Assembly (NCBI GenBank): GCA_000092065.1 | Contig: CP000585.1 | Source of the DNA: Ostreococcus lucimarinus | Taxonomy: Eukaryota | Direction: 5' to 3' (one strand) | DNA length: 64,000 bases | Shown here: positions 5,439 to 49,981 of the stretch, piece by piece | Numbering within the stretch: position 1 is the stretch's first letter | Layout of the letters: each line of letters begins with the position of its first letter | Translations under genes and position numbers: made by a program | Notes under the pieces: model-generated | Databases searched by the model: none | What the model was told of the DNA's origin: nothing | The model's input: only the letters and a program-made list of their open reading frames with translations

Positions 5439-5713
5439 CATCACACAGCTGTACATCGCGCCGCACGCGTCATCGCGCGCGCTCGCATCGCTTCGATTCC
5501 GTCGTCGTCTCGCGTCGCGCTTCTTCCCCTCTCTCCCGCGTCCGCACACCGCGTCGTCGCGCGCGCGGGTCCGGGCGAATGCCCTCGCGAGGCGACTCCC
5601 GCTCGCCTCGCGCGTCTCCGCGCGCCGGCGCGACGTCTCGCTCGCCCCATCACGCGGCGAACGAGCGCGCGGATGGCGTTGATGTTGGTGTTGCGACGCC
5701 GCGTCCGGTGAAG

Positions 5714-22705: not shown

Positions 22706-24037
22706 TCAATAACGTTCGAGAAGCTCTCGCAAATACTCCGCGCGATCCGCGAGCGCGCCCGCATTCGTCGTCACCCCGTAGCCATCCATCAGCTCTTCCG
22801 CTTGCCAGAGCTCGCGCAAAAGCTCCCAGTACTCACCGCCGTTGTCGGACAGAAACTCACACGCATCGGTCCAGTCGGGCTCTTCCTCGCAATACGCGCG
22901 AATACGTTTGAAATCCAGTTCGTGAATGTCGACGAAGACGCGACGAAGCGCCTCAGCCGACGTCGCGTCCGACGGCCCGTAAGCCGCGAGCGACGCGAAC
23001 ACGAGCTCGGTGAGCACCAGCGCCATGGCTTTCAGATCAACGACGACGCTTGTTGGCGTGCAAAGCGTACTACACCCAAAATTAATCAGCCTGACTTCCA
23101 GATCGTCCGCCTTTGTGTCTAAAAACGTGCTGCACAAAAACGTCGACCCGTCCAACGCCCCGTGCGCCACGCCCCTCTGATGCGCGTACCACACCCCCTT
23201 CAAGCACTGCTCGAACGCTCTTCTCACGTACCTCGCCCGCGCTTTCTTTGGTTGGTCTTGCACGCGCTGCACCGGAGGCCAAAACTTCGTCTCAGACTTC
23301 CCTTCCTGCTTCGCTCGCGCGTACTCGCTCAGCCTTCGCACGCCGTGCCACTCCTGCGCCGTCCACAAGCTCCTAGTCCCATCACCGTCGATCGAGGCCG
23401 ACGCGAAGTACCCAACCAGTCTCGCGATCGGTAACGCTTTTTGTGGCAGCATCCCCGGCCCTCGACCGTACTCATCCACCTCAATCTCCACGTCGTCGTC
23501 CGCCAGCAGCCGCTCGTACGCCCGCACCTCCGTCTCCGCGAACGCCGCCGCGCGTTCACCCGCGTACTCCTTCAGCATCACCGCGCCTCTGTCGGCGTTC
23601 CTCGAAATCGGCGGTACCGACGGTGTGTGCACGTACCTCCCCGCGTACACGTTCACCCTCGCCGCGCCGTCGTCGACCTCCTCCTCGACGCTCGACGCCG
23701 CGACGCTCTCCGGCGCGCCGCCGTCCGCGCTCGCGCGCCACGCGAACGCGCTCGCGCTCGGCCGCTCCGTGCGCAGCGTCACCGATCCCAGGCGCGTGGT
23801 GATTTCAAAATCGTCCGCCTCGGCGCGTTCGAGCGCGCTCCGCGTCGTCGTCGTCGGGTTCGTTCGACGTCCTCGCGCGCGCCCGTCGTGGATAGCGCGT
23901 CGACTTCGCGCGCGCGTTCGCGCGCCGGCGCGCGGCGCGCGCTCGAGCGCCGCGCGCGCGCGCACGACGCGAGCGTTCGCGCGCATGTCCCGCGCGCGCC
24001 GGTCGTTCGCGACCGCGCGCGTCGAGGAATGCCGCAC
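22706..24037 (-). CDS. Protein-kinase-like domain protein with degenerate catalytic motifs (HGALDG instead of HRDLK; NFG instead of DFG); probable pseudokinase with a low-complexity N-terminus
   Basis: VWYAHQRGVAHGALDGSTFLCSTFL...LEVRLINFGCSTLCTP matches subdomain VIb/VII spacing. The start is uncertain: ATG at 24035-24037 or an internal Met (MLKEYAGER). Confidence 0.4.
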   Translation of the reverse strand: MRHSSTRAVANDRRARDMRANARVVRARAALERAPRAGARTRARSRRAIHDGRARGRRTNPTTTTRSALERAEADDFEITTRLGSVTLRTERPSASAFAWRASADGGAPESVAASSVEEEVDDGAARVNVYAGRYVHTPSVPPISRNADRGAVMLKEYAGERAAAFAETEVRAYERLLADDDVEIEVDEYGRGPGMLPQKALPIARLVGYFASASIDGDGTRSLWTAQEWHGVRRLSEYARAKQEGKSETKFWPPVQRVQDQPKKARARYVRRAFEQCLKGVWYAHQRGVAHGALDGSTFLCSTFLDTKADDLEVRLINFGCSTLCTPTSVVVDLKAMALVLTELVFASLAAYGPSDATSAEALRRVFVDIHELDFKRIRAYCEEEPDWTDACEFLSDNGGEYWELLRELWQAEELMDGYGVTTNAGALADRAEYLRELLERY

Positions 24038-24245
24038 TCGTCGACGCGGTTCGTTTCATGTCCCCGAAAACGCCCGCGGTGACGTCGGCGCCCGCGCGTC
24101 GCGACGAGCGCGCGCGCGAGGGCGAACCCGTGGAGGTGTTCGCCGCGCACTCGCCCTACGACGCGCTGTGCGTGCTCGTGGCGCTCGTTCTCGGGCTGTT
24201 TCGAGCGGCGAGCGCGCGGTGCAGCTGCTGAATCGAGTCGAAACG

Positions 24246-25805
24246 ATGAAGCGCGAAGACGCGCTGCGCGCGACGAGCGCGACGCTGCGCGCGCGATCCG
24301 TGCACGAAGCTCGCGTGCGACGATTGAACGACGCGCGCGCGAGGGAGGCGCCGGATGGGGCGTACGTGTTGCTCTGGGCGCAGAGCGCGCAGAGGACGCG
24401 CTGGAACGAGGCGTTGGAGTACGCGGTCGACCGGGCGAACGATAGACGCGCGCCGCTCGTGGTCGTGTTTTGCTCGACGGCGACGTACCCGGAGGCGAAC
24501 GAACGACACGTTGGGTTCATGTTGGAGGGGTTGTGTGAGATGCGGGCGACGCTCGGGAAGCGGCGAATCGCGTTCGAGGCGTTCGCGTGCGCGCCGCCGG
24601 AGGCGGCGCTGGCGGCGAGCGAACGAGCGATCGAAGTGGTGACGGATTCGGGGTATTTACGGTTACTTCGCGCGTGGCGGGATGACTTGGCGCGGAGGGC
24701 AACGTGCGCGGTGACGGAGATCGAGACCGAGTGCGTGGTGCCGCAGTTGGGGCAGGGGGCGCGACGCGCGGAACCGTCGGCGGCGACGTTTCGGCCGAAG
24801 GTGCTGGCTCGCGTGCGGGAGTTCACTAGAAACGCGTGCGCCGTGCTGCCTTACATCGCGGGCGAACTGGATGACGCGACGCGCGCGATTTTTGAGAAGA
24901 CTGTCGACAAGTACGAGCGGCTGCCGCTCGAGCGAGGCGTCGACGCGTGCTTGAACGTCCTCGACGCTTACGGGCTAAAGCGAGATCCCAGCTGTCCTCG
25001 CGTGTCGTCTCACGTCGGTGGAGAGTCTCGAGCCAAGGCGAAGCTCGATGTGTTTTTGACGAAAAACATGCTCTCGCGCTATCATCATTCGCGTAACGAT
25101 CCGTGTTTGTGTTTGCAGAGTCATCTGTCGCCGCACATTCACTACGGGCAAATCTCCGTCGTCGAAGTGGCTCGCAAAGCGCTCGCGTTTCGCGACGCAC
25201 ACGCCGATGAAGCCGACATCTGTGCAAGCGTGGATGTTTTCCTCGACGAACTCATCGTACGAAGAGAGTTGGCGGTGAATTTTGCGCTGCGAAACCCAAA
25301 GTATGATTCTTACGACGGGCTTCCCGAATGGGCGCGAGAGACGCTGGAGAGGCATCGAGGTGATCGCCGCGAATGGACGTATACACTCGAGGAGTTTGAA
25401 CACGGCCGAACGCACGATAAGTTATGGAATGCATCGCAACGAGAGCTTGTGTCCAGTGGTAAACAACACAATTACTTGCGAATGTACTGGGGAAAGAAAA
25501 TCCTCGAATGGAGCTCGACGCCAGAAGAGGCTTGGCGTATCGCGATGACGCTCAACAATAGATATTCACTCGACGGTCGAAATATGGTTTCTTTGACCGG
25601 CGTGGGATGGTGTTTCGGCCTGCACGACCGTGAATTCCACGAGGCGAGCATAACTGGCACGATTCGACGCTTTTCTGAATCTGGCATGCGCAAGAAGTTC
25701 CCAGCCGGAATAAAGGGCTACCTCGAGCGTTGGGGCGACGACGGAGGGACGAAACGCCAACTGCGACTCGAAGACGTGTTCGGCAAACGATCGAAATCGA
25801 AATAG
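24246..25805 (+). CDS. Class II CPD photolyase (deoxyribodipyrimidine photo-lyase)
   Basis: Class II signatures: GAYVLLWAQSAQRTRWNEALEYAV..APLVVVFC, FLDELIVRRELAVNF, WNASQRELVSSGKQHNYLRMYWGKKILEW. Start at ATG 24246 (MKREDALR...). The ORF-track 5' extension to 23625 overlaps the divergent upstream gene. Confidence 0.85.
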   Translation: MKREDALRATSATLRARSVHEARVRRLNDARAREAPDGAYVLLWAQSAQRTRWNEALEYAVDRANDRRAPLVVVFCSTATYPEANERHVGFMLEGLCEMRATLGKRRIAFEAFACAPPEAALAASERAIEVVTDSGYLRLLRAWRDDLARRATCAVTEIETECVVPQLGQGARRAEPSAATFRPKVLARVREFTRNACAVLPYIAGELDDATRAIFEKTVDKYERLPLERGVDACLNVLDAYGLKRDPSCPRVSSHVGGESRAKAKLDVFLTKNMLSRYHHSRNDPCLCLQSHLSPHIHYGQISVVEVARKALAFRDAHADEADICASVDVFLDELIVRRELAVNFALRNPKYDSYDGLPEWARETLERHRGDRREWTYTLEEFEHGRTHDKLWNASQRELVSSGKQHNYLRMYWGKKILEWSSTPEEAWRIAMTLNNRYSLDGRNMVSLTGVGWCFGLHDREFHEASITGTIRRFSESGMRKKFPAGIKGYLERWGDDGGTKRQLRLEDVFGKRSKSK

Positions 25806-25863
25806 TATCATCAGTAGTCACATTTTGAATCATCATGTTGCAAACAATTGTATATGCTAAGCA

Positions 25864-27171
25864 TCACGCCGCGGCCGTCGTCGAGGTATCGAGGCGGTGT
25901 CTATCTGCTATTTCCGCTGCGCTTTGCGCGACCAAGGCGCGCAAATACGCTTCGACCGAACATCTTCCGGTCGAACCGACGGTGCTGTACGCCAAAAACG
26001 GGAGCTTTCTGAGAGCGCGACCGCTCAGTCCGTCGCAAGCTTCGGCAGCTTCGCGCAAAGTCAGCGACACCGGGCAACCTTTCGCGACACCATCGTCGAA
26101 TTCCATCGGCTCAGCGCCCTGCACCAAATCGCGACGAATGAGCTCAAGCACGCAGGAGCGCAAAATCTCGTACCTCGCTCGCATGCCGGGCGGGCCGATG
26201 TAGCATTTGATATCCGCGCGATCGACAAACGCTAGATCGATCGCTTCGGTGATGTTGCTCGTCGTTAGCACGATGGCGTTCGGTCTAGACTTCAGCGCGT
26301 CAAGCTGCGTGAGCAGAGCGTTGACGACGCGAATCGCGTCGCTGGGTTCCGAACCGTTCGCCGCACTCTTTCTCGCCGCAGCCAGACTTTCGACTTCATC
26401 GACGAGCACGAAAACCAAAGAATCTTCGTCTTCTAATAACTCTTGTATCTTACCGAACAGTTTACTCACCAACTTTCCGCTCTCGCTAAACCAACGACTG
26501 AAGAGCGAATGCGCGTTCACCTCCACCAACACGCTGCTCGAGTATATATGATTAAACCTGATGGACAACCGCTGCGCCAACGCCTTACACATCGTCGTCT
26601 TCCCCGTCCCCGGCGGTCCATGCAACAACACCACGCGATTCCACGAGATGAGCTGCGCGTCCACGCCGCGTTCACCGAACAACAGCGCCGCCGTCGCGTA
26701 CCGCAGCAGTCGCGTCTTCACCTCGTCGTCGTCGAAAATCAAAGACTCCCACGCGCCCTCAAAATCCACACACGGCAGGCTCCACTCCGTGTACGTCGCG
26801 ATCTCGTCTCCTTCCCCGATCTCCTCCCCCGGCCCGTCCTCGCACAGCCCGTACGCGCGCGTCGTCAGCGCGCACTGCCACGCCAACAACCGTCGCGTCC
26901 CGCGCCCCTTCCCCTCGTCCCCGTCCAGCCACTCCACGTCCGACACCCACACCTTATCGCACTGCGCGCGCAAAAACGCCCCCGCCTCGCACTTCCAATC
27001 GCTCTCGTCCCCGTCCACGAGCGCGCCCGCGCGCGCGTCGTCCACGCACGCCTTGCGCTCGAGCACGAACGTTCGAACCGCCGCCTCGATGGCGTCGTTC
27101 GTCGCCGTCGACCGCGCGCGCCGTCGCGCGTCGACGTGCACGCGCGCGACGATCGCGTCGCCGTCGCCCAT
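25864..27171 (-). CDS. TRIP13: TRIP13/PCH2 AAA+ ATPase (HORMA-domain remodeller; meiotic and spindle-checkpoint regulator)
   Basis: Near-identical blocks to human TRIP13: VLLHGPPGTGKTTMCKALAQ, SLFSRWFSESGKLVSKLFGKIQELL, LVFVLVDEVESLAAAR, EPSDAIRVVNALLTQLD, ILTTSNITEAIDLAFVDRADIKCYIGPP. Start at ATG 27169-27171 (MGDGDAIVARVHVD, matching the human PTVHVEVH region). Confidence 0.85.
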   Translation of the reverse strand: MGDGDAIVARVHVDARRRARSTATNDAIEAAVRTFVLERKACVDDARAGALVDGDESDWKCEAGAFLRAQCDKVWVSDVEWLDGDEGKGRGTRRLLAWQCALTTRAYGLCEDGPGEEIGEGDEIATYTEWSLPCVDFEGAWESLIFDDDEVKTRLLRYATAALLFGERGVDAQLISWNRVVLLHGPPGTGKTTMCKALAQRLSIRFNHIYSSSVLVEVNAHSLFSRWFSESGKLVSKLFGKIQELLEDEDSLVFVLVDEVESLAAARKSAANGSEPSDAIRVVNALLTQLDALKSRPNAIVLTTSNITEAIDLAFVDRADIKCYIGPPGMRARYEILRSCVLELIRRDLVQGAEPMEFDDGVAKGCPVSLTLREAAEACDGLSGRALRKLPFLAYSTVGSTGRCSVEAYLRALVAQSAAEIADRHRLDTSTTAAA

Positions 27172-27927
27172 CGCGCGCGCGTCGCGGTCGTTCGTCGCGC
27201 GCGTCGCGTCGTGCGGGCGTCGCGCGTCGCGCGTCGCGACGCGTCCCGTGTCTCGACGAGTCACGACCCATCGATCGAGGTGTTAATTACTCAAAATAAG
27301 CGAATAGGAATCGTAATATAAAGACGTGATATTTCACATACATTTTTAACTCCAGACGAGAAGCGCGGACGAACCGATGACGACATGTCGGCGCGACGTC
27401 CCGTCCCGGGCGCGACGCGAAAACCGCGCGATACTGCGCGGTCATAGGCGACCGCGCCCCCACACGCGCGCGCGCGGACGCGCGCCGCTCGCGCCGGGTT
27501 TGACCGCCGACGAGGCCCGCGCGACGCGAGGACAACGACATCGTCTTCGCGCGCACGCGACGAGGGCCGAACGACGGCCGCGCGCGACGGATGTCGGCGG
27601 TGGAGACGACGACGAACACCGGGCTCCCGATTCGGATGCCGAACGACGCGCGCGGCGCGACGCACGCGATCGATCCGCTGAGCGACGTGCACACGGCGGT
27701 GAAATCGGCGACGGGGACGAAGATCATCGCGCTGATCGACGTGAGCTCGAGGTTCGCGCTGCCGATCGCGCAAGCGGCGAAAGAGGTGCGGGCGAGATTA
27801 GATTTCCGGAGGATCGCGGCGCGGCGCGCGACGAGTTTCGAGAGACTGACGCGCGAATGGGTCGACGCGGAAACAGCTGGATGTGTGCGTGACGGTGCTC
27901 AAGTCAACGTGTCGCGCGTTCGGCATC

Positions 27928-28767
27928 ATGCGATGGCCGTATCGAAAGATGCGAAAACTGAACACTATGATTAAGCAGCTCGAGCGGTCGGCGAGAAACG
28001 CCGCCGAGGAAAACATATTACATCATAGAATGAAGCGACTTGAAGCGTGTCGACGTGCGAGAGATTTGTTGGTGCTAGAAGCAGAGGCGAACGCACGGGC
28101 GCGAATCGGAAAACCCGCCTCGCAGCAGTCCGCCAAGGCGGAGATAGCGTCGACGGGCGCGCGCTACGATTCCAGCGGGCGACTGGGCAACTTTAAGGAT
28201 CCTGGATACGCTTTCGATACCGACCACAAGGGTTATGCGCTGCATGAGGCGATGCGGAAGATGATGGAGACTGAGGGGTTAGATACGATCGGTCGTTCTG
28301 GTCACGTGGATGTCGAATCTGACCCACTGAGCGAACTCGCCTCGCAGGTTACCGCCGTGCAAGAGCGTTTCGTGCGACGGCCAAATCGCAACAAAAGACA
28401 GCTACCAACCAGATGCCCGGAAGAGATGGCACTACATGAATTCGTCATGGGCAATCCGGGACTCGAGGCAATGGCTTCGTTGACCGCGCGATTGCGCCGG
28501 CAAAAGGAATCGAAGAAACAGACGTCTGAGCACGCCGACGACGCGGACGGCGAAGTCGACATCGATGGGGACGACGGGAAGCAAATTGCGTGGATCGTAA
28601 GCTCTCAAAGTCCAGCCTATACCGTCAATGTCCGTCCAAGTAACCCAACGGCGCGAATTCCAGACGTCTTGGTAGAGGAACGCTCTCGGCGAGAAGCCAC
28701 CTCTCCGCTCGAGCCCAGTCTAGCTCTGTTCCCGTTAAATGTGTCAGCAATCCACAGTGCGGCTTGA
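27928..28767 (+). CDS. Hypothetical basic/acidic protein of unknown function
   Basis: Long ORF with non-GC-artefact composition (MRWPYRKMRKLNTMIKQLERSARNAAEENILHHRMKRLEA...), bounded by an AT-rich 3' region. The ORF-track start at 27883 is GTG; the first ATG is at 27928. No family recognised. Confidence 0.3.
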   Translation: MRWPYRKMRKLNTMIKQLERSARNAAEENILHHRMKRLEACRRARDLLVLEAEANARARIGKPASQQSAKAEIASTGARYDSSGRLGNFKDPGYAFDTDHKGYALHEAMRKMMETEGLDTIGRSGHVDVESDPLSELASQVTAVQERFVRRPNRNKRQLPTRCPEEMALHEFVMGNPGLEAMASLTARLRRQKESKKQTSEHADDADGEVDIDGDDGKQIAWIVSSQSPAYTVNVRPSNPTARIPDVLVEERSRREATSPLEPSLALFPLNVSAIHSAA

Positions 28768-28994
28768 CACTTGTTACTCAGTATTGCATTATTGTAGAAC
28801 CGCTTAGTATTTTATGTTATATTTATGTACCACGCGAAGTAACTCCCCTTTGCCGCGTATGCCTAGCGAGCGTGCTATCCGCAGTCGCGAAAGGGTCCAA
28901 ACCCTTCGCCGCCACCGCGCGTTCTCAGACGTCCGCGCGCGACCTCTCACGAGCCAAAGAGTGAACCGCGCGAAAGGTCACCGAGTTAGTCGCC

Positions 28995-31900
28995 ATGGGT
29001 AAGACTCCGGCGCAAGAGAACCGCCTGCGCGCGAAGAAGCAAGGGATGTCTCACGAAGACGTCAAAAAAGAGCAAGCCGCCGACGCGCGAAAGATCAAGG
29101 ATCTCGCGAACAAAGACGCGACGTTCGGGATGACGAAAGGAGCGGCGATGAATCGTAAGCATGAAGTTGCCATGCAACGGTTGCGGGACATGAATGACCC
29201 GACGACGGAACTCGGGAAAGCGACGCTCAGGGCGGCGAAGAAGAAGGCCAAGGAGCAGCAAGAGTTTTTGTTGCGAACGAAGGGCATAGACGTGAAACAA
29301 CCGGAATTACAGCCAGGAGTGGACCCGAAGACGGTGCTTTGCGAGTTTTTCAAGCACGGTTGCTGCGCGAAGACGGCGGATAAGTGCAAGTACTCGCACC
29401 AGTTGGATATCGCGACGCGGCAGCAGAAGCGAAGCGCGTTCGAGTTGCCGAGCGAGGACTCCATCGAGATGTGGGATCAGAAAAAGCTCGAAGCTGTCAT
29501 CGCGCGAAAGCACGGGCAGGAAGCGAACACAAACAATGAAACGACGATCGTGTGTAAGCATTTCTTGGATGCGGTTGAGAAGAAGCTTTATGGATGGTTT
29601 TGGCACTGCCCGGGCGGTGCGGACTGCAAGTACAAGCATAAGCTGCCGCCGGGTTTCGTGTTCAAGAGCGAGCTTCGCGAGAGATTGCTCGAAGAAGCTC
29701 GCGCGAGAAAGACCGACCAAGACATTCTACGCGAGAAACTGATCGCGCTGAAGAAGAGCGGGAAGAACACGACGCCGATGACGCTGGATGTGTATTTGGA
29801 GTGGAAGAAAGAGCGCGTCGACAAGATCAAAGCCACTGTGGAGGCTTCGAGGGAGGAGCGCATCAAGAACAACTTGCTCACGGGGCGTGAGATTATTGAA
29901 CAACAGCAGGGTGGAGTCGAGGCGGCGGTCGATGCCGGTGCGAGCGCCGGAGATGACGAAATTGCTCGATTGATGAAGGCGCGCAGAGAGGCGGACGACG
30001 AGGCAGAGCGCAAAGCCGCTGAAGAAGCTGCTGAAAACCTTGCTCGCGCGAAGAACTTGGGTGATCTTTACAACATAGAGATGTTGCCAGATGAGACCGA
30101 CGACTTCGCTGATCTTGAAGAGGAAGAAGACAACTTCGAACCGCCCGAGGGCTGGACTCCAGACGCTGTCGCTCCGGGTGGCGACGGTGGTCAAGACGAA
30201 GCCGCAGCAGTGGAATCGGCGGAACAACCGGATATCAACGAAAAGAAGGCTCGTCGAGAAGCCGAACTCAAGGCTATGGAAGAGGAGGGCATCAAGCTCG
30301 TGCAAAAGACGACGAGAAAGGACAAAGAGGAAGAGCTATTCAAGCCCGCGGTTGAGATCCCGGACGAGGCGTTGGGCGACGGCGAGATGGATCCGAAGAA
30401 GCTCGGTGAAATGATTGCGGCGAAGCGTGCAGCCGAAGAAGCTGAGCGAACGAAACATCTTGCCGATATGGCGGAGGAAAGGGAGCGAAAAGACGCCGCT
30501 AAGGCGGCAAAGAAGGCCGAACGGGAAGCCGCACGAGCGGCGAAGAAGAAGAAGAAGAAGGGTGACGACGAAAATGACGACGTGACGACCATCGAGGCAG
30601 CCCTTGGCAACGTTGAGCTCGAAGAGACTGGAACATCGATGAAACGCATGTCTACTGGTGTGTTGGCGTCTCGTCCCACCGCACGTGATATCAAGATTAT
30701 CAACTTCTCCATGGGTATGGGTGGTCGCGAGCTCATCAAAGACTGCGACATCGAAATCACAATCGGAAGAAGATACGGTTTACTCGGTCAGAATGGCTGC
30801 GGTAAAACAAACTTTCTCGAGTGCTTGGCTCGCCGAGAAGTCCCAATCCCGGATCACATTGATTTGTATCACTTGCGTGAAGAAGCTCTTCCGAGCGAAC
30901 GATCGGCGATTCAAACCGTCATCGATGAAGTTCAAGCTGAGATGGAACGTCTTAACAAGTTTGAACTGCACATTCTCGAAACTACCGGCCCAGATGACGA
31001 ACGTTTGGAGCTTATTTACGACCGACTAGAAGAGATCGATCCTACTACGTTCGAAGCGCGTGCATCTGAGCTTTTGCACTCTCTCGGTTTCTCCCAAACC
31101 ATGATTCATCGCCCAACGGCGGACATGTCTGGCGGCTGGCGGATGCGTGTCGCGCTTGCCAAGGCGTTGTTTGCCCAGCCCACTCTTTTGCTGTTGGACG
31201 AGCCAACGAATCACTTGGATCTCGAAGCGTGCGTGTGGCTCGAACACTACTTGGGACAGTACAAAAAGTGTCTCATAATCGTTTCTCACTCGCAAGATTT
31301 CTTGAATGGCGTCTGTACGCACATCATTTGGTTGACGCAGCAAAAGCTTACATACTACACCGGTAACTACGATACATTCCAGAAAACCGTGAACGAGAAC
31401 AACATCGTGCAGCAAAAGAAGTACGAAAAGGAGCAAGCTGACATCGCGCACTTGCAAGAATTCATCCGCTCGTGTGGTACGTACTCGAACATGCGCAAAC
31501 AAGCCGAATCGAAGCAAAAAATTATCGACAAGATGATGGCCGCAGGTCTCACACCGCCGGTCGCCAAAGAGCACGATTTCAAGTTCGACTTCCCCGAGTG
31601 TCAAAAAGTTCCGCCTCCCGTGCTTCCGTTCGCGAACGTGTCGTTCTCGTACAATGGTAAGAAGGAGGACTACTTGTACGAAGGGTTGGAGCTCGGCGTC
31701 GATTGCGACAGTCGTATTGCGTTGGTGGGCCCGAATGGTGCCGGTAAATCCACTCTTTTAAAGCTCATGACTGGCGAACTTTCGCCGAGTGTGGGTACGG
31801 TCGATAGACACCCGGGTCTGAGCATCGGTAAGTATCATCAGCACTCAGTCGATGTGCTTAACAAGGCGATGACCCCGCTGGAATTTTTCATGGCTGAATA

Positions 31901-32321
31901 TCCCAATAACCTCAAATTCAAGCGTGAGATGGAAGAGTGGCGTGCATACTTGGGGCGCTACGGCGTCAGCGGGCGCATGCAAACGCAGAAAATTGGCGAG
32001 TTGTCGGAAGGTCAACAGTCCCGTCTCGTGTTTGCCATGATTTGCATGCAGCGTCCGAACTTGTTGCTTCTCGATGAGCCGACGAATCACTTGGATTTGG
32101 AAGCGATCGATGCGCTCGCAGAAGCCATCAAGCGATACAACGGTGGGCTGGTGCTCGTGTCGCACGATTTCCGTCTCATCGACCAGGTCGCGGACAAGAT
32201 TTGGGTGTGCGAGAACAAAACGGTGCGCGATTGGAAAACGGATATCAGAATGTACAAGAAGCACTTGAGCGACAAGGCGGATCGCGAAGCGCGCGAGCGC
32301 AAGGCCAAGGTTCGCAAATAG
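28995..32321 (+). CDS. ABCF1: Single-ORF fusion: a ZC3H15/Tma46 (DFRP1)-like N-terminal module with two CCCH fingers, joined to a complete ABCF1 (ABC50)-type twin-ATPase
   Basis: N-terminal 390 aa: C-x8-C-x5-C-x3-H fingers and a DFRP-like core (LCEFFKHGCCAKTADKCKYSHQLD; VCKHFLDAVEKKLYGWFWHCPGGADCKYKHKLPPGFVFKS; LEWKKERVDKIK) collinear with human ZC3H15. After a K/E-rich linker comes STGVLASRPTARDIKIINFS...RRYGLLGQNGCGKTNFLE...LSGGWRMRVALAKAL...LLLDEPTNHLD...(second NBD) LVGPNGAGKSTLLKL...LSEGQQSRLVFA...LLLDEPTNHLD...LVSHDFRLIDQVADKIWVCENKTV, collinear with human ABCF1. Kozak-like GCCATGG at 28995. No stop or frameshift between modules. Confidence 0.85.
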   Translation: MGKTPAQENRLRAKKQGMSHEDVKKEQAADARKIKDLANKDATFGMTKGAAMNRKHEVAMQRLRDMNDPTTELGKATLRAAKKKAKEQQEFLLRTKGIDVKQPELQPGVDPKTVLCEFFKHGCCAKTADKCKYSHQLDIATRQQKRSAFELPSEDSIEMWDQKKLEAVIARKHGQEANTNNETTIVCKHFLDAVEKKLYGWFWHCPGGADCKYKHKLPPGFVFKSELRERLLEEARARKTDQDILREKLIALKKSGKNTTPMTLDVYLEWKKERVDKIKATVEASREERIKNNLLTGREIIEQQQGGVEAAVDAGASAGDDEIARLMKARREADDEAERKAAEEAAENLARAKNLGDLYNIEMLPDETDDFADLEEEEDNFEPPEGWTPDAVAPGGDGGQDEAAAVESAEQPDINEKKARREAELKAMEEEGIKLVQKTTRKDKEEELFKPAVEIPDEALGDGEMDPKKLGEMIAAKRAAEEAERTKHLADMAEERERKDAAKAAKKAEREAARAAKKKKKKGDDENDDVTTIEAALGNVELEETGTSMKRMSTGVLASRPTARDIKIINFSMGMGGRELIKDCDIEITIGRRYGLLGQNGCGKTNFLECLARREVPIPDHIDLYHLREEALPSERSAIQTVIDEVQAEMERLNKFELHILETTGPDDERLELIYDRLEEIDPTTFEARASELLHSLGFSQTMIHRPTADMSGGWRMRVALAKALFAQPTLLLLDEPTNHLDLEACVWLEHYLGQYKKCLIIVSHSQDFLNGVCTHIIWLTQQKLTYYTGNYDTFQKTVNENNIVQQKKYEKEQADIAHLQEFIRSCGTYSNMRKQAESKQKIIDKMMAAGLTPPVAKEHDFKFDFPECQKVPPPVLPFANVSFSYNGKKEDYLYEGLELGVDCDSRIALVGPNGAGKSTLLKLMTGELSPSVGTVDRHPGLSIGKYHQHSVDVLNKAMTPLEFFMAEYPNNLKFKREMEEWRAYLGRYGVSGRMQTQKIGELSEGQQSRLVFAMICMQRPNLLLLDEPTNHLDLEAIDALAEAIKRYNGGLVLVSHDFRLIDQVADKIWVCENKTVRDWKTDIRMYKKHLSDKADREARERKAKVRK

Positions 32322-32482
32322 ATGAATTACTTTTACGGCGTTGACGTTGATACTACACCATTCATTGAGAAATTTTAATACTAATCCCATTCTAGTTCCT
32401 CCACCTTTGATTCGCGCGTCACCCCGCCGCCGCGCCAACGCCGAATTTCGCCGCCACCGCCGTCTTCATCGCCACCAACCCC

Positions 32483-33757
32483 ATGTCCGTAAACCCTAAA
32501 AATAGCGTCAGCGCCGTCATCCCCAAAATCACCGCCACCGCGTTCGACGCGATCGCTCGCCACGTCTTCCCAGACGTCAGCGGCGCGGTCGGCCACCGCA
32601 ACAGCGGCGTCACGAAGCTCAAATTCTCCGGCTGCTGCGCCATCCACGCCCGCATCGCGCGCGCGGCGTACTCCGCCAACGACTCCTCTCGCACGTCGTC
32701 GTCGTACGCGCCATCATCGCGCGCCAGCGCCTCGCGCGTCACCGTTCGCGTCACCGTTCGCGTTCGAAGCCAACCCGCGGCGTCGAACGCCGTCACCGCG
32801 CCCCGCGCCGCGCGCGCGCGCCGCCGCGCCGTCGCCGCACCGCTCGACGCGCGCGCGACTCTCGAAGTCGCGCGCGCGCGGATCGTCGCGCCGCACCGCG
32901 TCGACGTCGTCGCCATTCGCCGCGATGTGCGGTACCTCAGAATGTCGCGCGGCGTCGCGCGCGCGCGCGCGGCGCCGGCGCCGGTCGCGCGGTTCCGCGC
33001 GCGGCGTCGCGCCGGTCGCGCGGTTCCGCGCGCGGCGTCGCTCGGCGTCGACCTCGAGCCCTGGGCGCGCCCGCTCGAGCGCGCGCTCGACTTTCGACGC
33101 GATGGCGCCGGAAGCGCGTCGAGCCGCGCCGCGTCGCTGTTCACGACGGCCGTCTTCGCGCGCGCGTACTGGCGCGGGTATCGACAGCTGTTCAGGGCGC
33201 TCGGGTACCCGGGAGCCGCCGCCGAGGCGTCGCTCGCGCTCGGGACGCTGCGGGACGGCGGCGCGATGCTGGACGTGTCGTGCGGACCGGGGCTGATACT
33301 CGACCTCTTGGCGCGCCATTCGGCGCGCTCGGGGAAGTGGGAGCGCGTGGTTGGTTTAGATTTTTCTCGAGAGATGGTGACACTGGCGCGCGAGGCGTGC
33401 GGCGAGCGCGCGACGGTGGTGGTGGCGGACGCGTGCGATTTGCCGTTCGCCGATGGCGCATTCGACGTCTTGCATTCGAGCGCGGGGGCGCATTGTTGGG
33501 GCGATTTGAACAGCCGTGGCGTTCCCGAGTCGGCTTTTCGCGAAATGTATCGAGTTTTAAAACCGACGGGGGAGATACTGGTATCGACTGTCGTCCTGCT
33601 GAAGCCGACGACGGTTGAGGAGGAGTACTCGCGAACGCCGAACACGCCATTTTTCGACGAACGCGCGGTGTGCCGGATGATTCAAGACGCTGGGTTTCGC
33701 GATGTTGAAGTTATAGCAAAGGATAAGTGTTTCGTGGCCGTCAAGGCTGTTAAGTGA
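32483..33757 (+). CDS. Class I SAM-dependent methyltransferase (Methyltransf_11 type) with a long S/A/R-rich N-terminal presequence; start uncertain (ATG 32483 or ATG 32942)
   Basis: Motif I MLDVSCGPGLILDLL, motif post-I VVGLDFSREMV, motif II DLPFADGAFDVLHS, motif III VLKPTGEILVS. Preceded by YWRGYRQLFRALGYPG, typical of plastid-type MTases. The 408-aa antisense ORF 32419..33645 is a GC artefact. Confidence 0.6.
   Translation: MSVNPKNSVSAVIPKITATAFDAIARHVFPDVSGAVGHRNSGVTKLKFSGCCAIHARIARAAYSANDSSRTSSSYAPSSRASASRVTVRVTVRVRSQPAASNAVTAPRAARARRRAVAAPLDARATLEVARARIVAPHRVDVVAIRRDVRYLRMSRGVARARAAPAPVARFRARRRAGRAVPRAASLGVDLEPWARPLERALDFRRDGAGSASSRAASLFTTAVFARAYWRGYRQLFRALGYPGAAAEASLALGTLRDGGAMLDVSCGPGLILDLLARHSARSGKWERVVGLDFSREMVTLAREACGERATVVVADACDLPFADGAFDVLHSSAGAHCWGDLNSRGVPESAFREMYRVLKPTGEILVSTVVLLKPTTVEEEYSRTPNTPFFDERAVCRMIQDAGFRDVEVIAKDKCFVAVKAVK
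32980..33041. repeat. 31-bp perfect tandem duplication (gccggtcgcgcggttccgcgcgcggcgtcgc x2) inside the putative N-terminal region of the methyltransferase gene
   Basis: Direct reading; copies at 32980-33010 and 33011-33041. The period is not a multiple of 3. Confidence 0.7.
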
Positions 33758-33854
33758 AGAGATGGCGGCGGAGGTGGCGAGGTTACGAAGCGACGCTAGC
33801 GGCGCGATGAATAGAATTAAAAATCAGCAACGAAACGCTTGTGCGCGCGCGAAA

Positions 33855-34976
33855 TCAACGGCGAAGAATCTGCTTCAGCGCTTGGTCGATCCTCTCGTAC
33901 TTGAACTTATAACCCACATCAAGCGCGGTTTTGGGTTGGATTCTCTGCCCTTGAAGAACTAGAGTCGATCCTTCGCCGAGAACTGCGCGCAACGCGAAAT
34001 CTGGCACCGGCAACCAACTCGGTTTCCCTAAGGTCTCGCCGAGGGATTCGCACATCTCTCGCATGCGGACGGGCGTTGGCGCGACGCAATTCACCGGACC
34101 TTCAAGTTTTACGTTTGTCAAGCTCTCCATTATGATCCCCACCGCGTCGTCTCTATGAATCCAACTAAACCACTGCTGACCGTCGCCCAAGGGCCCGCCC
34201 ATGAACGCTTGGAAAGTCGGCACCATCTTCCCGAGCGCCCCACCATCTCGATCGAGCACAATCCCTAATCGCAGCAGCACCACTCTACAATCTTCAACCC
34301 CACTCGCGGTTTGTTCCCACGCCTGGCAGACTTGACTTAAATAGTCCGCGCCTGGCCCGCTCGCTTCGTCGTACGTATCTGTCTCACTCGTCCCGTAGTA
34401 CCCGATCGCCGAAGCGTTCACCAATACCTTAGGTCTCTTGGCGTCGTTTGTGATCGAATTCACGTGTTCGACGACCGCCTTGGTGGTTTTCACTCGGGAC
34501 GCCATGATTTCACCCTTCACCTTCGGGTCCCAGCGCGTGCTGATTGGTTCGCCAGCTAAATTCACCACGTGCGTCGCGCCGAGCAACCCGCGTCGCCACT
34601 TATCCGGAGACACAAACGCGACGTCGCCCTTTGGGAGATTTTGTGGAGAAAGCTTCGCGCGAGCGCGGTTGACGTCTCGCGTGAGCACTCGCACTTCGGC
34701 GCCCCGCTCGAGGAGCGTCTCCACTAGCTTGCTACCCACGAACCCGGTTGCGCCCGTGATGGCGACGATGAGCCGATCGTCGGACGACGCTACGGACAGG
34801 TCGTCGTCCACGCTCGCGGAAGGCGCTAGAGCGCCCCGACGTGCGCGCGTCGAGCGGAAAAGATGGCGACGACACGTCTTATCCACCGAACGGGACGGCG
34901 AGCGGAGGCGCGCGCAGGGCGTCGCATTGCTCGCCGGAGCACGATAAAACGCGTTACAAGTCACTGCTGACGTCAT
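33855..34976 (-). CDS. SDR39U1/YfcH-type NAD-dependent epimerase family protein (TIGR01777-like) with an N-terminal targeting-like presequence
   Basis: Rossmann start IVAITGATGFVGSKLVETLLERGAEVRVLTR, family core ...NLAGEPI..RW...K.EI..SRV..T..., and a C-terminal DUF1731-like QRIQPKTALDVGYKFKY. Real ATG at 34974-34976. Confidence 0.7.
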   Translation of the reverse strand: MTSAVTCNAFYRAPASNATPCARLRSPSRSVDKTCRRHLFRSTRARRGALAPSASVDDDLSVASSDDRLIVAITGATGFVGSKLVETLLERGAEVRVLTRDVNRARAKLSPQNLPKGDVAFVSPDKWRRGLLGATHVVNLAGEPISTRWDPKVKGEIMASRVKTTKAVVEHVNSITNDAKRPKVLVNASAIGYYGTSETDTYDEASGPGADYLSQVCQAWEQTASGVEDCRVVLLRLGIVLDRDGGALGKMVPTFQAFMGGPLGDGQQWFSWIHRDDAVGIIMESLTNVKLEGPVNCVAPTPVRMREMCESLGETLGKPSWLPVPDFALRAVLGEGSTLVLQGQRIQPKTALDVGYKFKYERIDQALKQILRR

Positions 34977-36610
34977 CTCGTGGTTTGAAGCTCGCGCCCG
35001 GTGCGCACCGCGTCGTCGACTGCGGCCTCACCAACGACGGCTTGACGTTTTTGCAGGAAACTATGCCGCCGAGCGGCGTCGGGCGTCAACCGTCGAGACG
35101 GATTCCAGTGCAGCGCTCGTAGTAGAAATGCGTTGAACCGATCGTCGTCGATATCGATGACTTTCGTGCGCTTGCTTCGCGGCTTGTGCTTTGAGGATGT
35201 CCGATCGCTACGTTTGTCGTCTCGTCGACTTCTCGCAAACGACGACTCGCACACATGAAAGTCGACTCGGCGATCGGAGTGTGCTGCCGAGCTAAGAATG
35301 CGGCGTGGAGGAGGCCCAATCCGCGAGGTGATCGCGCTTAACTGGCGTGCCTCATCGTCGCCCACAAATAAAGTTTTGCCAGTGGCAAGCTCGGCGAGAA
35401 CGCACGCCAAGCTCCATACGTCAATGGGATGGCCGTAATCGATTCCGAGCATGACTTCCGGAGCGCGGTAGAATCGGCTCTGAATGTACGTATACACTTG
35501 TTTTCCCTGAAAACACGCGCTTCCGAAGTCGATGAGTTTGACATCGAACGAGCCAGGATGTTCTAGCAAAATGTTTTCGGGTTTGATGTCACAGTGCACC
35601 ACTTGCATGTGTTTGAGGTACACGAGCGCATCCACCATTTGCCGAGCGATATGGCGGACGTGTTGAATATCTAACTTCGCGAACGCGCGGGCTTCCAAGA
35701 ACTCGTACAAGTTGATGTGAAGCAGCTCAAACACAACGCACAATCGACCGCGAAACTTTAAATGCTCGAACATCTTCACTACGCGACTCGAACCACCTTC
35801 GACACGTTTGAGCACCGAAACTTCCACGCGAGCTTGACTCGCAAATGTTTCGTCAGGAGAAATCAGTTTAAGTGCCACTTCGCGCTTATATTTATGGTCA
35901 AAGCAACGCACAACTTGACCGAAATTTCCCGCGCCGAGTGAATTGAACATTTCAAATCGAAACGCCACGTGCTCGCCCTTCCTGATGCGAAAGGCATCGT
36001 CCTCGTCACCACTGCTAGCACCGGAACCGTGCGATAGCGTTTGCGTGTCGTCTGAGAGATGTTCTAGAGTCGGCACGTACCACACATGTTTGTAACGCAA
36101 AATATCGTTTCGGTCCATCACTCGAAGCCGCTTCCAAAACTTCTGCATCGCTTCTACGATCGACATTCCGATCGAGTCTCCATGCCTGGACCTATGAGTT
36201 TCCGGTGTCTGTTGGGATTGGTATTTTCGCCTCGCCGTGCCAGGCCGGCCGGTGGCGCCCGCGCCGTGTCGTCGACTCGAGCGCGCGCTGAGCGGTGGTA
36301 TGGTTGGTGTGAACTTAGGGGTCATGGCCGTTTCGTACGACGATGTCTGCTGGACCACGCCGAAACAACCATTGCAAGTTCCATATTTGTCGTCGGTCAC
36401 TCTGGCGTTTGCGAGCGCGTGCGAACGTAAACGAGTTTGAGTCACGGTCGCAGTGGCAAGTCTTCTCGGTGGAAGTTCGGTCAACGCGTCCACGCGGCGA
36501 GGAGCCGTAGAAGGCATACGACATCCTTCGCCGCCCGGTTTAGCGACTGGGTCAATTGTGAGGGTTGGGAAAATGCGCCTACGATCGTTTGTCGCATCTC
36601 GAGTCCGCAT
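34973..36610 (-). CDS. DYRK-family dual-specificity protein kinase
   Basis: DYRK catalytic domain (FEMFNSLGAGNFGQVVRCFD...ALKLI..., HCDIKPENILL, DFGSAC, YIQSRFYRAPEV, DVWSLACVLAELATGKTLF) with the tail ...NPSRRLTPDAARRHSFL. Real ATG at 36608-36610. Its TGA stop (34973-34975) overlaps the ATG of the downstream epimerase gene. Confidence 0.8.
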   Translation of the reverse strand: MRTRDATNDRRRIFPTLTIDPVAKPGGEGCRMPSTAPRRVDALTELPPRRLATATVTQTRLRSHALANARVTDDKYGTCNGCFGVVQQTSSYETAMTPKFTPTIPPLSARSSRRHGAGATGRPGTARRKYQSQQTPETHRSRHGDSIGMSIVEAMQKFWKRLRVMDRNDILRYKHVWYVPTLEHLSDDTQTLSHGSGASSGDEDDAFRIRKGEHVAFRFEMFNSLGAGNFGQVVRCFDHKYKREVALKLISPDETFASQARVEVSVLKRVEGGSSRVVKMFEHLKFRGRLCVVFELLHINLYEFLEARAFAKLDIQHVRHIARQMVDALVYLKHMQVVHCDIKPENILLEHPGSFDVKLIDFGSACFQGKQVYTYIQSRFYRAPEVMLGIDYGHPIDVWSLACVLAELATGKTLFVGDDEARQLSAITSRIGPPPRRILSSAAHSDRRVDFHVCESSFARSRRDDKRSDRTSSKHKPRSKRTKVIDIDDDRFNAFLLRALHWNPSRRLTPDAARRHSFLQKRQAVVGEAAVDDAVRTGRELQTTR

Positions 36611-37801: not shown

Positions 37802-40800
37802 CTATTCCATGATGTCGTCGACAGCGCCACCGAAGCGGCCCCACAAACCAGATCGGCGAGCGACGGGCTGTTCGGGCTCTTTCTCAGGTTCATCATCGAG
37901 GACGCTCTCGTCGACGGATTCTCCGGGTGCAAGCGCACGGCTCTCGACGATTATTTCGTTGCCGTCAGAGTCATACTCGACGATTTCAAGAATCTCTTCC
38001 GTCTCTTCAAGGTAACCAGGTTCTTCTTCCTGCTCGCCGTCTTCACTCGGTTCATCTTCAACTTCTGTGTCGTAGGTCGTGGCGATCTCGACGCGCGAGC
38101 CATACCTGCGCTCCATCGATTCTTCCACGTCGTACACGACGGTGGGTTTGGATGTAGGTGAAGGCGCGCTTCGAATCGGTTCTACTGGCTCCGGCTCGGG
38201 TCGCTTTGGAATTTCCGGCATCTCGAACGTTGGCTCGTCGCCCAAGTCAAAGTTCACCGTGGTCGAACCGACGTTCGGATCTGCCATCTTTGGCTCGGGT
38301 CTAGCCATGAGCTTGTCCCGTTCCGATCTCAACTCGTTTAGCTCCGCCAGCTGAGATTTACAGGTTTCGTGACACTCATCGAGAAGCTTCTGCAGTTCTG
38401 CGGTGCCGTCGTCATGCGGCTGTGATTTCGCAAGCACCAATGCCCTCTTAAGCTCCGCGATCTCCACCTTGAGTGTGATTAGGAACTCTTCAGCGCCTTG
38501 AGCGCGTTTGTCATTCATTCTAGCCCAGTTCTCGGCGTACTCGACGGCCTCTTGGCTTGACTTGATCTCGTCTTCCAACGTGGTGACTTCTTCTCGCGTG
38601 GACGCGAGTTCGATTTCAAGGTCGTGAATTTTAGCCCGAGTTGCAGCCGAATCGCCTGTCGCACCAGCGGCTTCGAGCTTCGCGGCCGCAATAGCCTTTA
38701 CAGACTTCTCGCGTTCATCGCTCAATTCATCTTCGAGATCACTGATTCGCTCTTTGAGTGCAGCCAGCTTGCCACGCAAGTCTTCTTCGTACTCAATTCG
38801 CACATTCGAAAGCTCGCTGCGCAACTTCGTAATCTTCGCGTCGCTCGCCTTTTGGATGCGCTGACTTTCAAACATAAGTTCTTCTTGCTCGGCCGCGTAT
38901 TCTTGGACTTGCGCGCGAAGCTTAGCCAATTCAACTTCGGCGTCGTTTAACTGTTCTTGTGTACGTTCGAGCTTCCGCTGAATCAAGTCAGCATTTTGTC
39001 TGGCTTCAATCTGGAAGAAGTTGAACTCCTTCGTGATAAAGTCCTTGGCGACACGCAAACGTTCGAGCTCGGCGAGAGCCTCGTCGAGTTCCTCCTTGAG
39101 AGATACATTTTCGTCGTTCAGCTTCTTGCCTGCGCTGATGAGGTCGGCACTCTTTGAGCTCACTCGTTCGGCTTCAGCGCCGAGCTCATTCTGAGTGCTC
39201 TCGTACTCAGCCTTGAGTTCCTTCACCTGCAACTCAAGACGCTCAATGAGCGTGGTTTGCGAGGTGATCTTTAAATGCAGTTCTTTCTTCACGCGCATAG
39301 TTTCCTCTGAAGCAACATTCGTCGCAGTCATCGCGGCAGTTGCCTCACGTTCTCGCGAGGACAGCTTCTCGCGTAGCGCGTGGACTTCACGTTCTCGCTT
39401 GGTGCGCTCCGTTACGAGTTCTGTTTCAAGATGTTCAACCTTCGTTCTGAGCACGTGAATCTCTCGCAGAAGATCGGGGTCGTTGCTTGATGATGCTTGA
39501 GATTTATCCTTCGCACCTCGCTCGAGCTCGTCCAATCTAAGACGGAGTTTCATCATGTCAGAAACAGCGACGTCACGCGAATCCGTCATTTCAACAAGAT
39601 CGCCCTCGAGATCTTCGATGATTCTCGCATAATCCCGCGCCGCGTTTTCGCGATCCTTGATTTCTTTACCTATGGCGAAACTGTGATCGGAAATGATCTT
39701 TTCAACTGCCGCGGCATGTTTGCGCTCGATCGAGATGATTTCTTGCTCGAGCTCTGAGATGCGCTGTCGCAGCGTTTTCACGAGTTCATCGTTCACACCT
39801 GTATTTTTCCCCTTGACGCGTTCGGCATCACTCAACTGTCGACGCAGCAAATCAAGCTCTTTCTCCAAAAGTTCTTTTTCCGAAACATGCTCGGCGGATT
39901 TCGCTTTGAGCGCGTCCAGCTCAGACTGCAACGAGGGGATGATCGACTGTTTCGCTTTCAGCTCGGCGAGCTTTTCTTGCAAAGCGGCAAGTTTCGTCTC
40001 CAACATCTTTCGTTCCTCATCGGCATTTGCCGACGCAGGCACTTGCTTTCTCAGCTCGTCCAAATCTGCTTGCAAAGTATGAATTGTTCTTGTCGCAACT
40101 TCACCGTGCACCTTTAATTCCGTTTTGAGCGACCCTGCGAAAGAAGAAGCCAGAGACAAAAGTCTCTTGTTACGAACATCACGAATCGTGCATCGTAACA
40201 ACGCCGCCCAGCGTAATTGTGCGCGTTCGGACTTGTTAAGGCCATATTGCTTGCCCTCCATATCTGCAAGTCGCTTCGCTGCAGACGCTGCGTCGGCCAT
40301 CGCTCGAGATTGCAGATCGTTGAAATCTCGCTCGAGTCGCTTAATCTTTTCCTGAGCGGCAGCATTTGCCGACGCAGGCACTTGCTTTCTCAGCTCGTCC
40401 AAATCTGCTTGCAAAGACTGAATTGTTCTTGTCGCAACTTCACCGTGCACCTTTAATTCCGTTTTGAGCGACCCTGCGAAAGAAGAAGCCAGAGACAAAA
40501 GTCTCTTGTTACGAACATCACGAATCGTGCATCGTAACAACGCCGCCCAGCGTAATTGTGCGCGTTCGGACTTGTTAAGGCCATATTGCTTGCCCTCCAT
40601 ATCTGCAAGTCGCTTCGCTGCAGACGCTGCGTCGGCCATCGCTCGAGATTGCAGATCGTTGAAATCTCGCTCGAGTCGCTTAATCTTTTCCTGAGCGGCA
40701 GCTAGGCCAACGCTTTGCTCGCCACCAGTGAGAAGCATCTTCTCCAAATCAGAAATCGTCTCATCTCGCTGCCCGATGATAGCTTGAGACTTTGTCATCT

Positions 40801-49670: not shown

Positions 49671-49711
<41 letters not shown>

Positions 49712-49981
49712 TGCCTTGGGCTTGGGCTTCTCTCTCTTCGGCCTTGGCGACGGCGAGCGCCTCTCTCTCGCCTCGCGCGGCCGATTTATGAAATCATCCC
49801 GACTTTGTCTGGTATCGACCCCCAAAAGCATCCCTTTGAAGAAATTCACTGATTTCCCGTTCGCCTCCCCGTTCTTGGCCCCCGTCCTCGTCTTACCGTC
49901 CGTCGGCGGAAGTTCGCACCCTTCGCCGCCGAATCGGCACTCTGCGCGCGCGCGAGCGATCATCGCACCATCGTCAATCAT
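37802..49981 (-). CDS. Giant single-exon gene encoding a roughly 4059-aa coiled-coil protein. The N-terminus has a 12-residue poly-Pro run. The body is highly repetitive: at least 12 copies of a roughly 60-aa 'SERAxLRW..(L)..R..R(F/L)F.TSKDF..SM..EY.LH.E...KT(I/V)RSL' module separated by heptad coiled coil, with three exact internal tandem duplications.
   Basis: Uninterrupted 12.2-kb ORF. The ORF-track start at 49987 is TTG; the first ATG is at 49979-49981. Identical plus-strand shadow ORFs (40125..40355 = 40464..40694; 41924..~42400 = 43202..~43690; 45990..46223 ≈ 46236..46457) reveal tandem duplications of 339 bp, 1278 bp and 246 bp. The C-terminus is acidic (DEPSEDGEQEEEPGYLEETEE). Confidence 0.7.
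49693..49731. repeat. (GGC)n trinucleotide microsatellite (about 13 units) encoding poly-Pro on the minus strand within the giant gene's N-terminal region
   Basis: ccggcggcggcggcggcggcggcggcggcggcggcggcg. Confidence 0.7.

Follow-up and report, generated by a model that had tools for sequence, protein, structure and literature searches.

In yeast, the GTPase Rbg1 (DRG1) associates with paused ribosomes, on which it binds both the A-site tRNA and the GTPase-associated centre, and its loss raises pausing. Tma46 wraps Rbg1 and inserts its zinc finger 2 between h16 and h33 of the 40S subunit, an insertion needed for ribosome association. ABC-F proteins occupy the E site and contact the P-site tRNA via their inter-domain linker. 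Among them, Arb1 (ABCF2), an essential protein of yeast, has been connected with ribosome biogenesis; it has also been found in the 60S ribosome-associated quality control (RQC) complex, stimulating the A-site-bound hydrolase Vms1. What ABCF2/Arb1 does at the molecular level is poorly defined, and how DRG1-DFRP1 restarts paused ribosomes is still open. Here we describe a gene of Ostreococcus lucimarinus that encodes a DFRP1/Tma46-like module and an ATPase assigned to the ABCF2/Arb1 type in one continuous reading frame. It occupies positions 28995..32321 (+ strand) of a stretch of 64,000 nucleotides (nt) from contig CP000585.1 of GenBank assembly GCA_000092065.1, and this whole stretch is called the window below.

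The closest functional analogy to such an arrangement is the yeast Gcn1-Gcn20 system with Rbg2-Gir2, where a DRG-DFRP pair and an ABC-F protein are found in one stalled-ribosome complex. In Gcn1-bound disomes, Rbg2-Gir2 (DRG2-DFRP2) lies at the A site of the stalled ribosome and the ABC-F protein Gcn20 belongs to the same complex. There, however, DRG2-DFRP2 and ABCF3 are joined non-covalently via Gcn1, and Gcn20 is reported to lack ribosome contact, whereas the O. lucimarinus gene encodes DFRP1 and ABCF2 in covalent union, with no scaffold. In terms of gene architecture, the ABCF3-WHI2 fusion of four fungi (Murina et al., PMC6723617) is similar in being a lineage-restricted fusion of an ABC-F protein to a functionally related protein, but it involves another partner and another ABC-F subfamily.

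An ATG-started open reading frame (ORF) of 1108 amino acids (aa) spans exactly 28995..32321 on the + strand, in a neighbourhood with a local guanine plus cytosine (GC) content of 52-56%. A stop codon in its own frame lies 33 nt upstream of the ATG, and neither stops nor frameshifts were found anywhere within the ORF. The open frame is not a matter of chance, since in the connector region alone 6 stops interrupt one of the other two forward frames and 15 the other. The N-terminus MGKTPAQENR is common to the fused protein and the standalone DFRP1 proteins of Pyramimonas, which also begin with it, and for this reason the start codon is taken as right. A preliminary description of this DNA had noticed an uninterrupted run from an N-terminal module into an ABC-F protein with two nucleotide-binding domains (NBDs), and this was confirmed, the ORF being continuous with no stop, splice or misjoin. 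The JGI/IMG calls give the full 1108 aa for the O. lucimarinus gene. In the NCBI data for the same species, a 284-aa 'predicted protein, partial' (P0002) corresponds to aa 18-301, that is, to the N-terminal module alone, and XP_001417756.1 corresponds to the ATPase part. The NCBI annotation thus seems to represent a single ORF by two models, with most of the connector left out, and the one polypeptide encoded by 28995-32321 corrects the public annotation with its separate models for N-terminal module and ATPase. The features of the gene, with the evidence for each, are as follows.

28995..32321, + strand: fused gene, consisting of a DFRP1/Tma46-like module, a connector and an ABCF2 ATPase (1108 codons plus stop)
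28995..29309, + strand: N-terminal basic helical region (aa 1-105), beginning MGKTPAQENR (likeness to Pyramimonas DFRP1; Tma46 alignment from aa 25)
29340..29399, + strand: CCCH zinc finger 1 (aa 116-135, CEFFKHGCCAKTADKCKYSH) (motif, alignment with the Tma46 finger, weak Torus/CCCH match)
29553..29639, + strand: CCCH zinc finger 2 of the long-spaced Tma46 type (aa 187-215, CKHF...YGWFWHCPGGADCKYKH) (motif, Tma46 alignment)
29664..29939, + strand: DFRP domain region, predicted to bind DRG (aa 224-315) (PF16543, Tma46 collinearity to aa 305)
29940..30689, + strand: connector (aa 316-565), 250 residues rich in A, E, K and D (composition, ratio of nonsynonymous to synonymous differences per site (pN/pS), conserved motifs)
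30486..30629, + strand: Lys/Ala-rich stretch within the connector (aa 498-545, ...AAKAAKKAEREAARAAKKKKKK...) (sequence)
30654..30671, + strand: TGVLAS motif (aa 554-559), at which the ABCF2 core begins (shared by all fused proteins and present also before the ABCF2-like half of the four-NBD protein P0244, described below)
30690..31331, + strand: NBD 1 (aa 566-779) with Walker A GQNGCGKT, signature MSGGW, Walker B LLLLDEP and H-loop VSHS (Pfam ABC_tran, motifs)
31332..31586, + strand: inter-domain linker, equivalent to the P-site tRNA interaction motif (aa 780-864) (ABC_tran_Xtn PF12848, 69.5 bits)
31587..32234, + strand: NBD 2 (aa 865-1080) with Walker A GPNGAGKS, signature LSEGQ, Walker B LLLLDEP and H-loop VSHD (Pfam ABC_tran, motifs)
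32235..32318, + strand: basic C-terminal tail (aa 1081-1108) with 12 K/R in 28 residues (sequence)

The N-terminal part of the protein is recognized as DFRP1 by several independent comparisons. Pfam finds DFRP_C (PF16543) at aa 256-315 with 35-37 bits, above the gathering score of 27.5, and gives a weak Torus/CCCH match at aa 111-142. When the N-terminal 400 residues were compared with all PDB chains the sole match was yeast Tma46 (7rr5 chain T; E 1.4e-41), and query residues 25-305 are collinear with Tma46 residues 6-280 over a segment that covers both zinc fingers, TPMTLDVYLEWKK and TGREII. Among 16 aligned sequences the finger 1 ligands C116, C124, C131 and H135 are invariant, and so are C187, Y199-W203, C205, C211 and H215 of finger 2, which has the long C-x17-C spacing and the YGWFW motif. 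Invariant residues of the DFRP region are D243, L245, L249, T263, W270, R289, T296, G297 and E299. The segment M1-Q7 does not vary either, and many further residues are common to the fused proteins and the standalone DFRP1 of Pyramimonas, so that a green-algal N-terminus is shared. The ZC3H15/Tma46 (DFRP1) module with both CCCH fingers that the preliminary description had placed here therefore holds for about 310 residues, and DFRP models do recognize this N-terminus. The resemblance ends with the length of the chain: known Tma46/ZC3H15/DFRP1 members are standalone proteins of ~340-450 aa that finish shortly after the DFRP domain, whereas the fused chain continues for ~800 residues into an ABC-F protein and represents a variant architecture.

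The C-terminal part, aa ~566-1108, is a complete ABC-F protein with two NBDs, as had been proposed; Pfam detects two ABC_tran domains plus ABC_tran_Xtn, and the NCBIfam ABC-F models agree. The NBDs are joined by ABC_tran_Xtn and no membrane domain is present, which is the layout of soluble ABC-F proteins. Both NBDs keep Walker A, signature, Walker B plus catalytic glutamate, and H-loop all intact, and the ATPase is thus predicted to be catalytically competent. Its subfamily is another matter, since the ABCF1/ABC50 identity first given to it could not be maintained. Compared with PDB sequences, the ATPase half scored 627 bits against yeast Arb1 (ABCF2, 6r84), its best match, versus 415 bits against human ABCF1 (5zxd). 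A neighbour-joining tree was rebuilt on the trimmed NBD1 alignment of Murina et al. with 21 reference sequences and 300 bootstraps, all of which (300/300) placed the fused ATPase within the ABCF2 clade and none (0/300) with ABCF1. It pairs with Chlamydomonas ABCF2 (83%), and the other ABCF2 paralogue of O. lucimarinus joins that pair (92%). The supplement of Murina et al. (PMC6723617) labels the ATPase sequence Ostreococcus_lucimarinus_CCE9901_XP_001417756.1_ABCF2, and for the same genome it lists a second ABCF2 (XP_001418891.1), one ABCF1 and one ABCF6; the fused ATPase is hence one of two ABCF2 paralogues in this genome, and ABCF1 is a separate gene. Taken together, these comparisons assign the ATPase to the ABCF2/Arb1 type.

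ABCF1 and ABCF2 are sister subfamilies (Murina et al., PMC6723617), and the fused protein does resemble ABCF1/ABC50 in its ABC-F superfamily fold and in having a long N-terminal region that is charged. In ABCF1, a long N-terminal domain with poly-Lys/Arg and poly-Glu/Asp runs binds eIF2. The connector of the fused protein is charged as well, and its basic part follows the Lys/Ala pattern described for ABCF2. With Arb1/ABCF2 the fused protein has in common, besides the best PDB match and the position in the tree, the two NBDs with their linker, the intact motifs and a Lys/Ala-rich stretch before the core. It differs in the extent of what precedes the core: the basic extension of ABCF2 proteins usually has ~60-100 residues (e.g. 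P0245, 619 aa), while in the fused protein ~500 residues are found, including the whole of DFRP1. Because the ATPase is of the ABCF2 type, the coupling to be predicted from the fusion is that of ABCF2/Arb1 with DFRP1/DRG1, and not that of ABCF1 with DFRP1.

The 250 residues of the connector include 43 K/R and 69 D/E, with a net charge of -26. Among the Ostreococcus species compared, its synonymous sites are saturated (pS 0.75-0.82), for which reason pN/pS is given instead of the ratio of the corresponding rates (dN/dS) for most regions; pN is 0.10-0.18 and pN/pS 0.12-0.23, close to the flanking domains. The fact that pN stays far below the saturated pS, at a level near that of the flanking domains, indicates that the connector is translated in the frame of the ORF and is under purifying selection. 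An alignment of 14 proteins is collinear across the connector, every indel being in frame, and the motifs PEGW.PDAVAP and LDPK.LGE..A.KRAAEEA are conserved between genera; the central part is only 25-29% identical between Ostreococcus and Micromonas. An intron within the connector was considered and rejected on the basis of O. mediterraneus transcripts that are collinear through it and of the codon-level selection. The N-terminal domain of ABCF2 proteins has lysine and alanine repeats (Murina et al., PMC6723617), and the Lys/Ala stretch at aa 498-545 can be read as ABCF2's own N-terminal extension. An AlphaFold2 model of the full protein, calculated from a 16-sequence alignment, reached a predicted local distance difference test score (pLDDT) of 52 and a predicted template modelling score (pTM) of 0.31; in this low-confidence model the connector would form helices at 317-358 and 467-521, with coil elsewhere.

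The continuity of the gene was examined in relatives of O. lucimarinus. A search with the full-length sequence gave 24 proteins, 1039-1149 aa long, with both DFRP_C and ABC domains; its matches include an identical protein of 1108 aa (P0121), and full-length fused orthologues were identified in O. tauri (1116 aa, NCBI/UniProt), O. mediterraneus (1113 aa) and Micromonas commoda (1146 aa). Defining as single-exon a gene whose span equals 3 x (aa + 1) bases, uninterrupted single-exon ORFs are present in O. tauri (L003, 3351 nt), Ostreococcus sp. (L006/L007, 3303 nt) and M. commoda (L004/L005, 3441 nt); counted together, at least four genomes, drawn from two Mamiellales families, have a single-exon fused ORF. 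Complete MMETSP transcripts of O. mediterraneus, Mantoniella antarctica and M. beaufortii encode the fused protein, and dozens of metagenome contigs carry the same continuous ORF. The join of DFRP1 and ABCF2 is thus real, conserved and transcribed: the stop, splice or misjoin that could have separated the two modules was not encountered, independent assemblies and complete transcripts of relatives giving a continuous ORF.

In an exhaustive HMMER scan of 1.84 billion cluster representatives, the fused architecture was confined to one cluster at 50% identity (P0135), which holds the named Mamiellales proteins. When the N-terminal module was compared by phmmer with the best 150 representatives, the P0135 cluster alone was matched (E 1e-114), the next E value being 0.46. 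The named members belong to Bathycoccaceae (Ostreococcus) and Mamiellaceae (Micromonas, Mantoniella), and an abundant 65%-identity group (P0127, P0128) may be Bathycoccus. The survey of related algae for the same N-terminal module, suggested at the outset, accordingly found the fusion in Ostreococcus, Micromonas and Mantoniella, and throughout Mamiellales the fused form of this gene is the standard one, not a peculiarity of O. lucimarinus. DFRP1 exists as a standalone protein of ~340-450 aa in Pyramimonas parkeae and P. obovata (complete transcripts in both), in Pedinophyceae, Trebouxiophyceae and Chlorophyceae, and in land plants and fungi, in line with the earlier expectation that DFRP1 and ABC-F are separate genes in other lineages. 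Since Pyramimonas and other greens keep a standalone DFRP1, the fusion would have involved one of two chlorophyte ABCF2 paralogues and would have taken place on the branch that leads to Mamiellales, once this had separated from Pyramimonas-type prasinophytes. Apart from P0002, no Mamiellales-labelled DFRP1 was present among the matches listed in the N-terminal module search (120 matches, 222-674 aa, a span that takes in the lengths of standalone proteins), which suggests that the fused copy is the sole DFRP1 of Mamiellales genomes.

Two proteins considered as more distant fusions, P0244 and P0252, were rejected, as they are tandem ABC-F proteins with four NBDs and have no DFRP module. P0244 (L008 3001-6927) is a single ORF of 1308 aa with four ABC domains, found in several marine metagenome samples and composed of an ABCF4/eEF3L-like half and an ABCF2-like half with its own TGVLASRPTA start. 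This ABCF2-like half is 64.5% identical to XP_001418891 and 56.8% identical to the DFRP1-fused ABCF2. The model of XP_001418891, the 'unfused' ABCF2 of O. lucimarinus, starts at an internal Met; Mamiellales may have their second ABCF2 in fused form as well. P0252, a transcript of the dinoflagellate Polykrikos kofoidii, has a layout similar to that of P0244.

The fused proteins are already in public databases with both Pfam domains detectable, under the JGI label 'ABC subfamily F protein 2'. Full-text literature searches found no published description of a DFRP1-ABCF2 fusion. In the main text of Murina et al. (PMC6723617) 'zinc' and 'DFRP' occur 0 times, and that survey worked from a truncated model of the fused protein comprising its ATPase part.

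From the properties of the homologues, it is reasonably probable that this Mamiellales polypeptide joins two ribosome factors so that DFRP1-DRG1 and ABCF2 act together on the paused ribosome. The DFRP domain would hold DRG1, presumed to be present, as Tma46 holds Rbg1, and zinc finger 2 would anchor the DFRP1-DRG1 pair on the 40S subunit as it does in yeast Tma46. DRG1 would thereby be placed at the GTPase-associated centre, beside the A-site tRNA. By analogy with other ABC-F proteins, the ABCF2 module would enter the E site, its inter-domain linker extending to the P-site tRNA. Thanks to the flexible tether, both modules may be delivered to the same paused ribosome or to neighbours in a collided pair; by a rough estimate, the ~250 mostly charged residues of the tether have the length needed to cross the tRNA cleft of a single ribosome or to connect neighbouring ones. 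The paused ribosome could then be restarted or resolved by two enzymes acting jointly, a GTPase towards the A site and an ATPase towards the E site. A weak but independent hint comes from an organism in which the genes are separate: human ABCF2 is among the 16 proteins common to a ZC3H15 pull-down and the BioGRID interactors of ZC3H15. A covalent fusion kept across an algal order despite saturated synonymous sites constitutes evolutionary evidence for action at the same place and time.

Several points weigh against joint action on the ribosome. The mechanism outlined for the predicted ~125-kDa protein is drawn from its homologues. Yeast Rbg1/Tma46 particles hold eIF5A in the E site, so that ABCF2 must compete or alternate with eIF5A. 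The human association of ABCF2 with ZC3H15 may be indirect via ribosomes, given that ribosomal proteins appear in the same list. The AlphaFold2 model is, with its pLDDT, too poor for judging contacts between the modules, and the point concerning standalone DFRP1 in Mamiellales is based on absence from one search. Finally, in O. mediterraneus Transcript_7368 (P0177, P0178) two 'complete' ORFs of 510 and 574 aa take the place of one. This transcript also favours the explanation that the ORF gives rise to two proteins, by internal initiation, proteolysis of the connector or an alternative transcript, and the existence of separate NCBI models (P0002; XP_001417756.1) points in the same direction. 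However, the break of Transcript_7368 is located inside the Lys/Ala repeat, with 29 residues lost, and it is in such repetitive sequence that assembly indels are common; the sibling transcripts Transcript_7084 and 7367 encode the intact 1113-aa protein. The Met at which the downstream ORF restarts is Leu in O. lucimarinus, and a conserved internal start codon for a separate ABCF2 was not found, no Met near the junction being conserved in the alignment. P0002, for its part, ends where the similarity to DFRP1 fades, suggesting homology-limited modelling. Hence the split of Transcript_7368 is probably due to an assembly indel and less probably to a real variant, and the production of two proteins from this gene appears quite improbable. 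The other way in which the fusion could be misleading, that is, adjacent genes joined by misassembly or by a sequencing error that removed a stop, might find support in the long-read assemblies of relatives, where the gene is found in several calls (L001 5311-8623 in frames 1, 3 and 2; L002 6001-9398 in frame 1 and then 3). Yet these 'pilon'-polished assemblies fragment the gene by frameshifts typical of long-read indel errors, with homology resuming in another frame and, in L001, even inside the ATPase core. The independent assemblies of at least four species agree with dozens of metagenome contigs and with the transcripts, and selection acts on the connector at codon level; the artefact is effectively refuted. 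Frameshifted polished long-read assemblies of this sort are, in general, a caution for judging gene architecture.

There remains the explanation that the fusion is neutral, a product of genome compaction, with modules that work independently, DFRP1-DRG1 on translating ribosomes and ABCF2 in biogenesis or 60S RQC. Intergenic spacers in the window are very short (e.g. 228 nt upstream of the fused gene), and the apparent fusion of a second ABCF2-like protein to another ABC-F module in related environmental sequences suggests that fusions are frequent in this group. The fast divergence of the connector centre between genera and the separation of the two genes in every other lineage examined can be understood in the same manner. 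On the other hand, the fusion has been retained across two Mamiellales families despite synonymous saturation even within Ostreococcus, and the connector shows purifying selection together with motifs shared across genera. Moreover, no standalone Mamiellales DFRP1 was among the matches listed, which would leave the DFRP1 function always tethered to ABCF2, and both partners act on ribosomes and are linked to the handling of stalled ribosomes. Considering both sides, a neutral fusion seems to us somewhat unlikely. Joint action of DFRP1-DRG1 and ABCF2 could also be extended beyond Mamiellales: taken as a Rosetta stone, the fusion would indicate that eukaryotes at large rely on a partnership within one paused ribosome, with DRG1-DFRP1 on the A-site and GTPase-centre side and ABCF2/Arb1 in the E site. 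In that case the fused gene would be the sole DFRP1 of Mamiellales, making the coupling obligatory in this group, and ABCF2 would gain a defined role in translation elongation. Such a generalization is an unlikely one.

The gene order around the fusion is conserved between O. lucimarinus (window 23625-36610), O. tauri (L003) and a third Ostreococcus (L006) and comprises photolyase, a TRIP13-like AAA ATPase, RWP-RK, the fusion, a methyltransferase, an epimerase/DUF1731 protein and a protein kinase. In O. tauri the epimerase and the kinase are annotated as one 837-aa product, and in Micromonas the methyltransferase alone remains near the fusion. No tRNA genes were found in the window. Two further long products encoded on the + strand, at 5126-9181 (1351 aa) and 53136-56627 (1163 aa), matched no Pfam family at E<=1e-5. 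The same holds for an ORF of 4061 codons on the - strand (37802-49987), lying in a region of lower GC (0.50-0.55) and strongly negative AT skew. Its sequence is rich in E, A, L, R and K, heptad-like and coiled-coil in character, with an N-terminal poly-Pro run, and its product is probably a giant coiled-coil protein.

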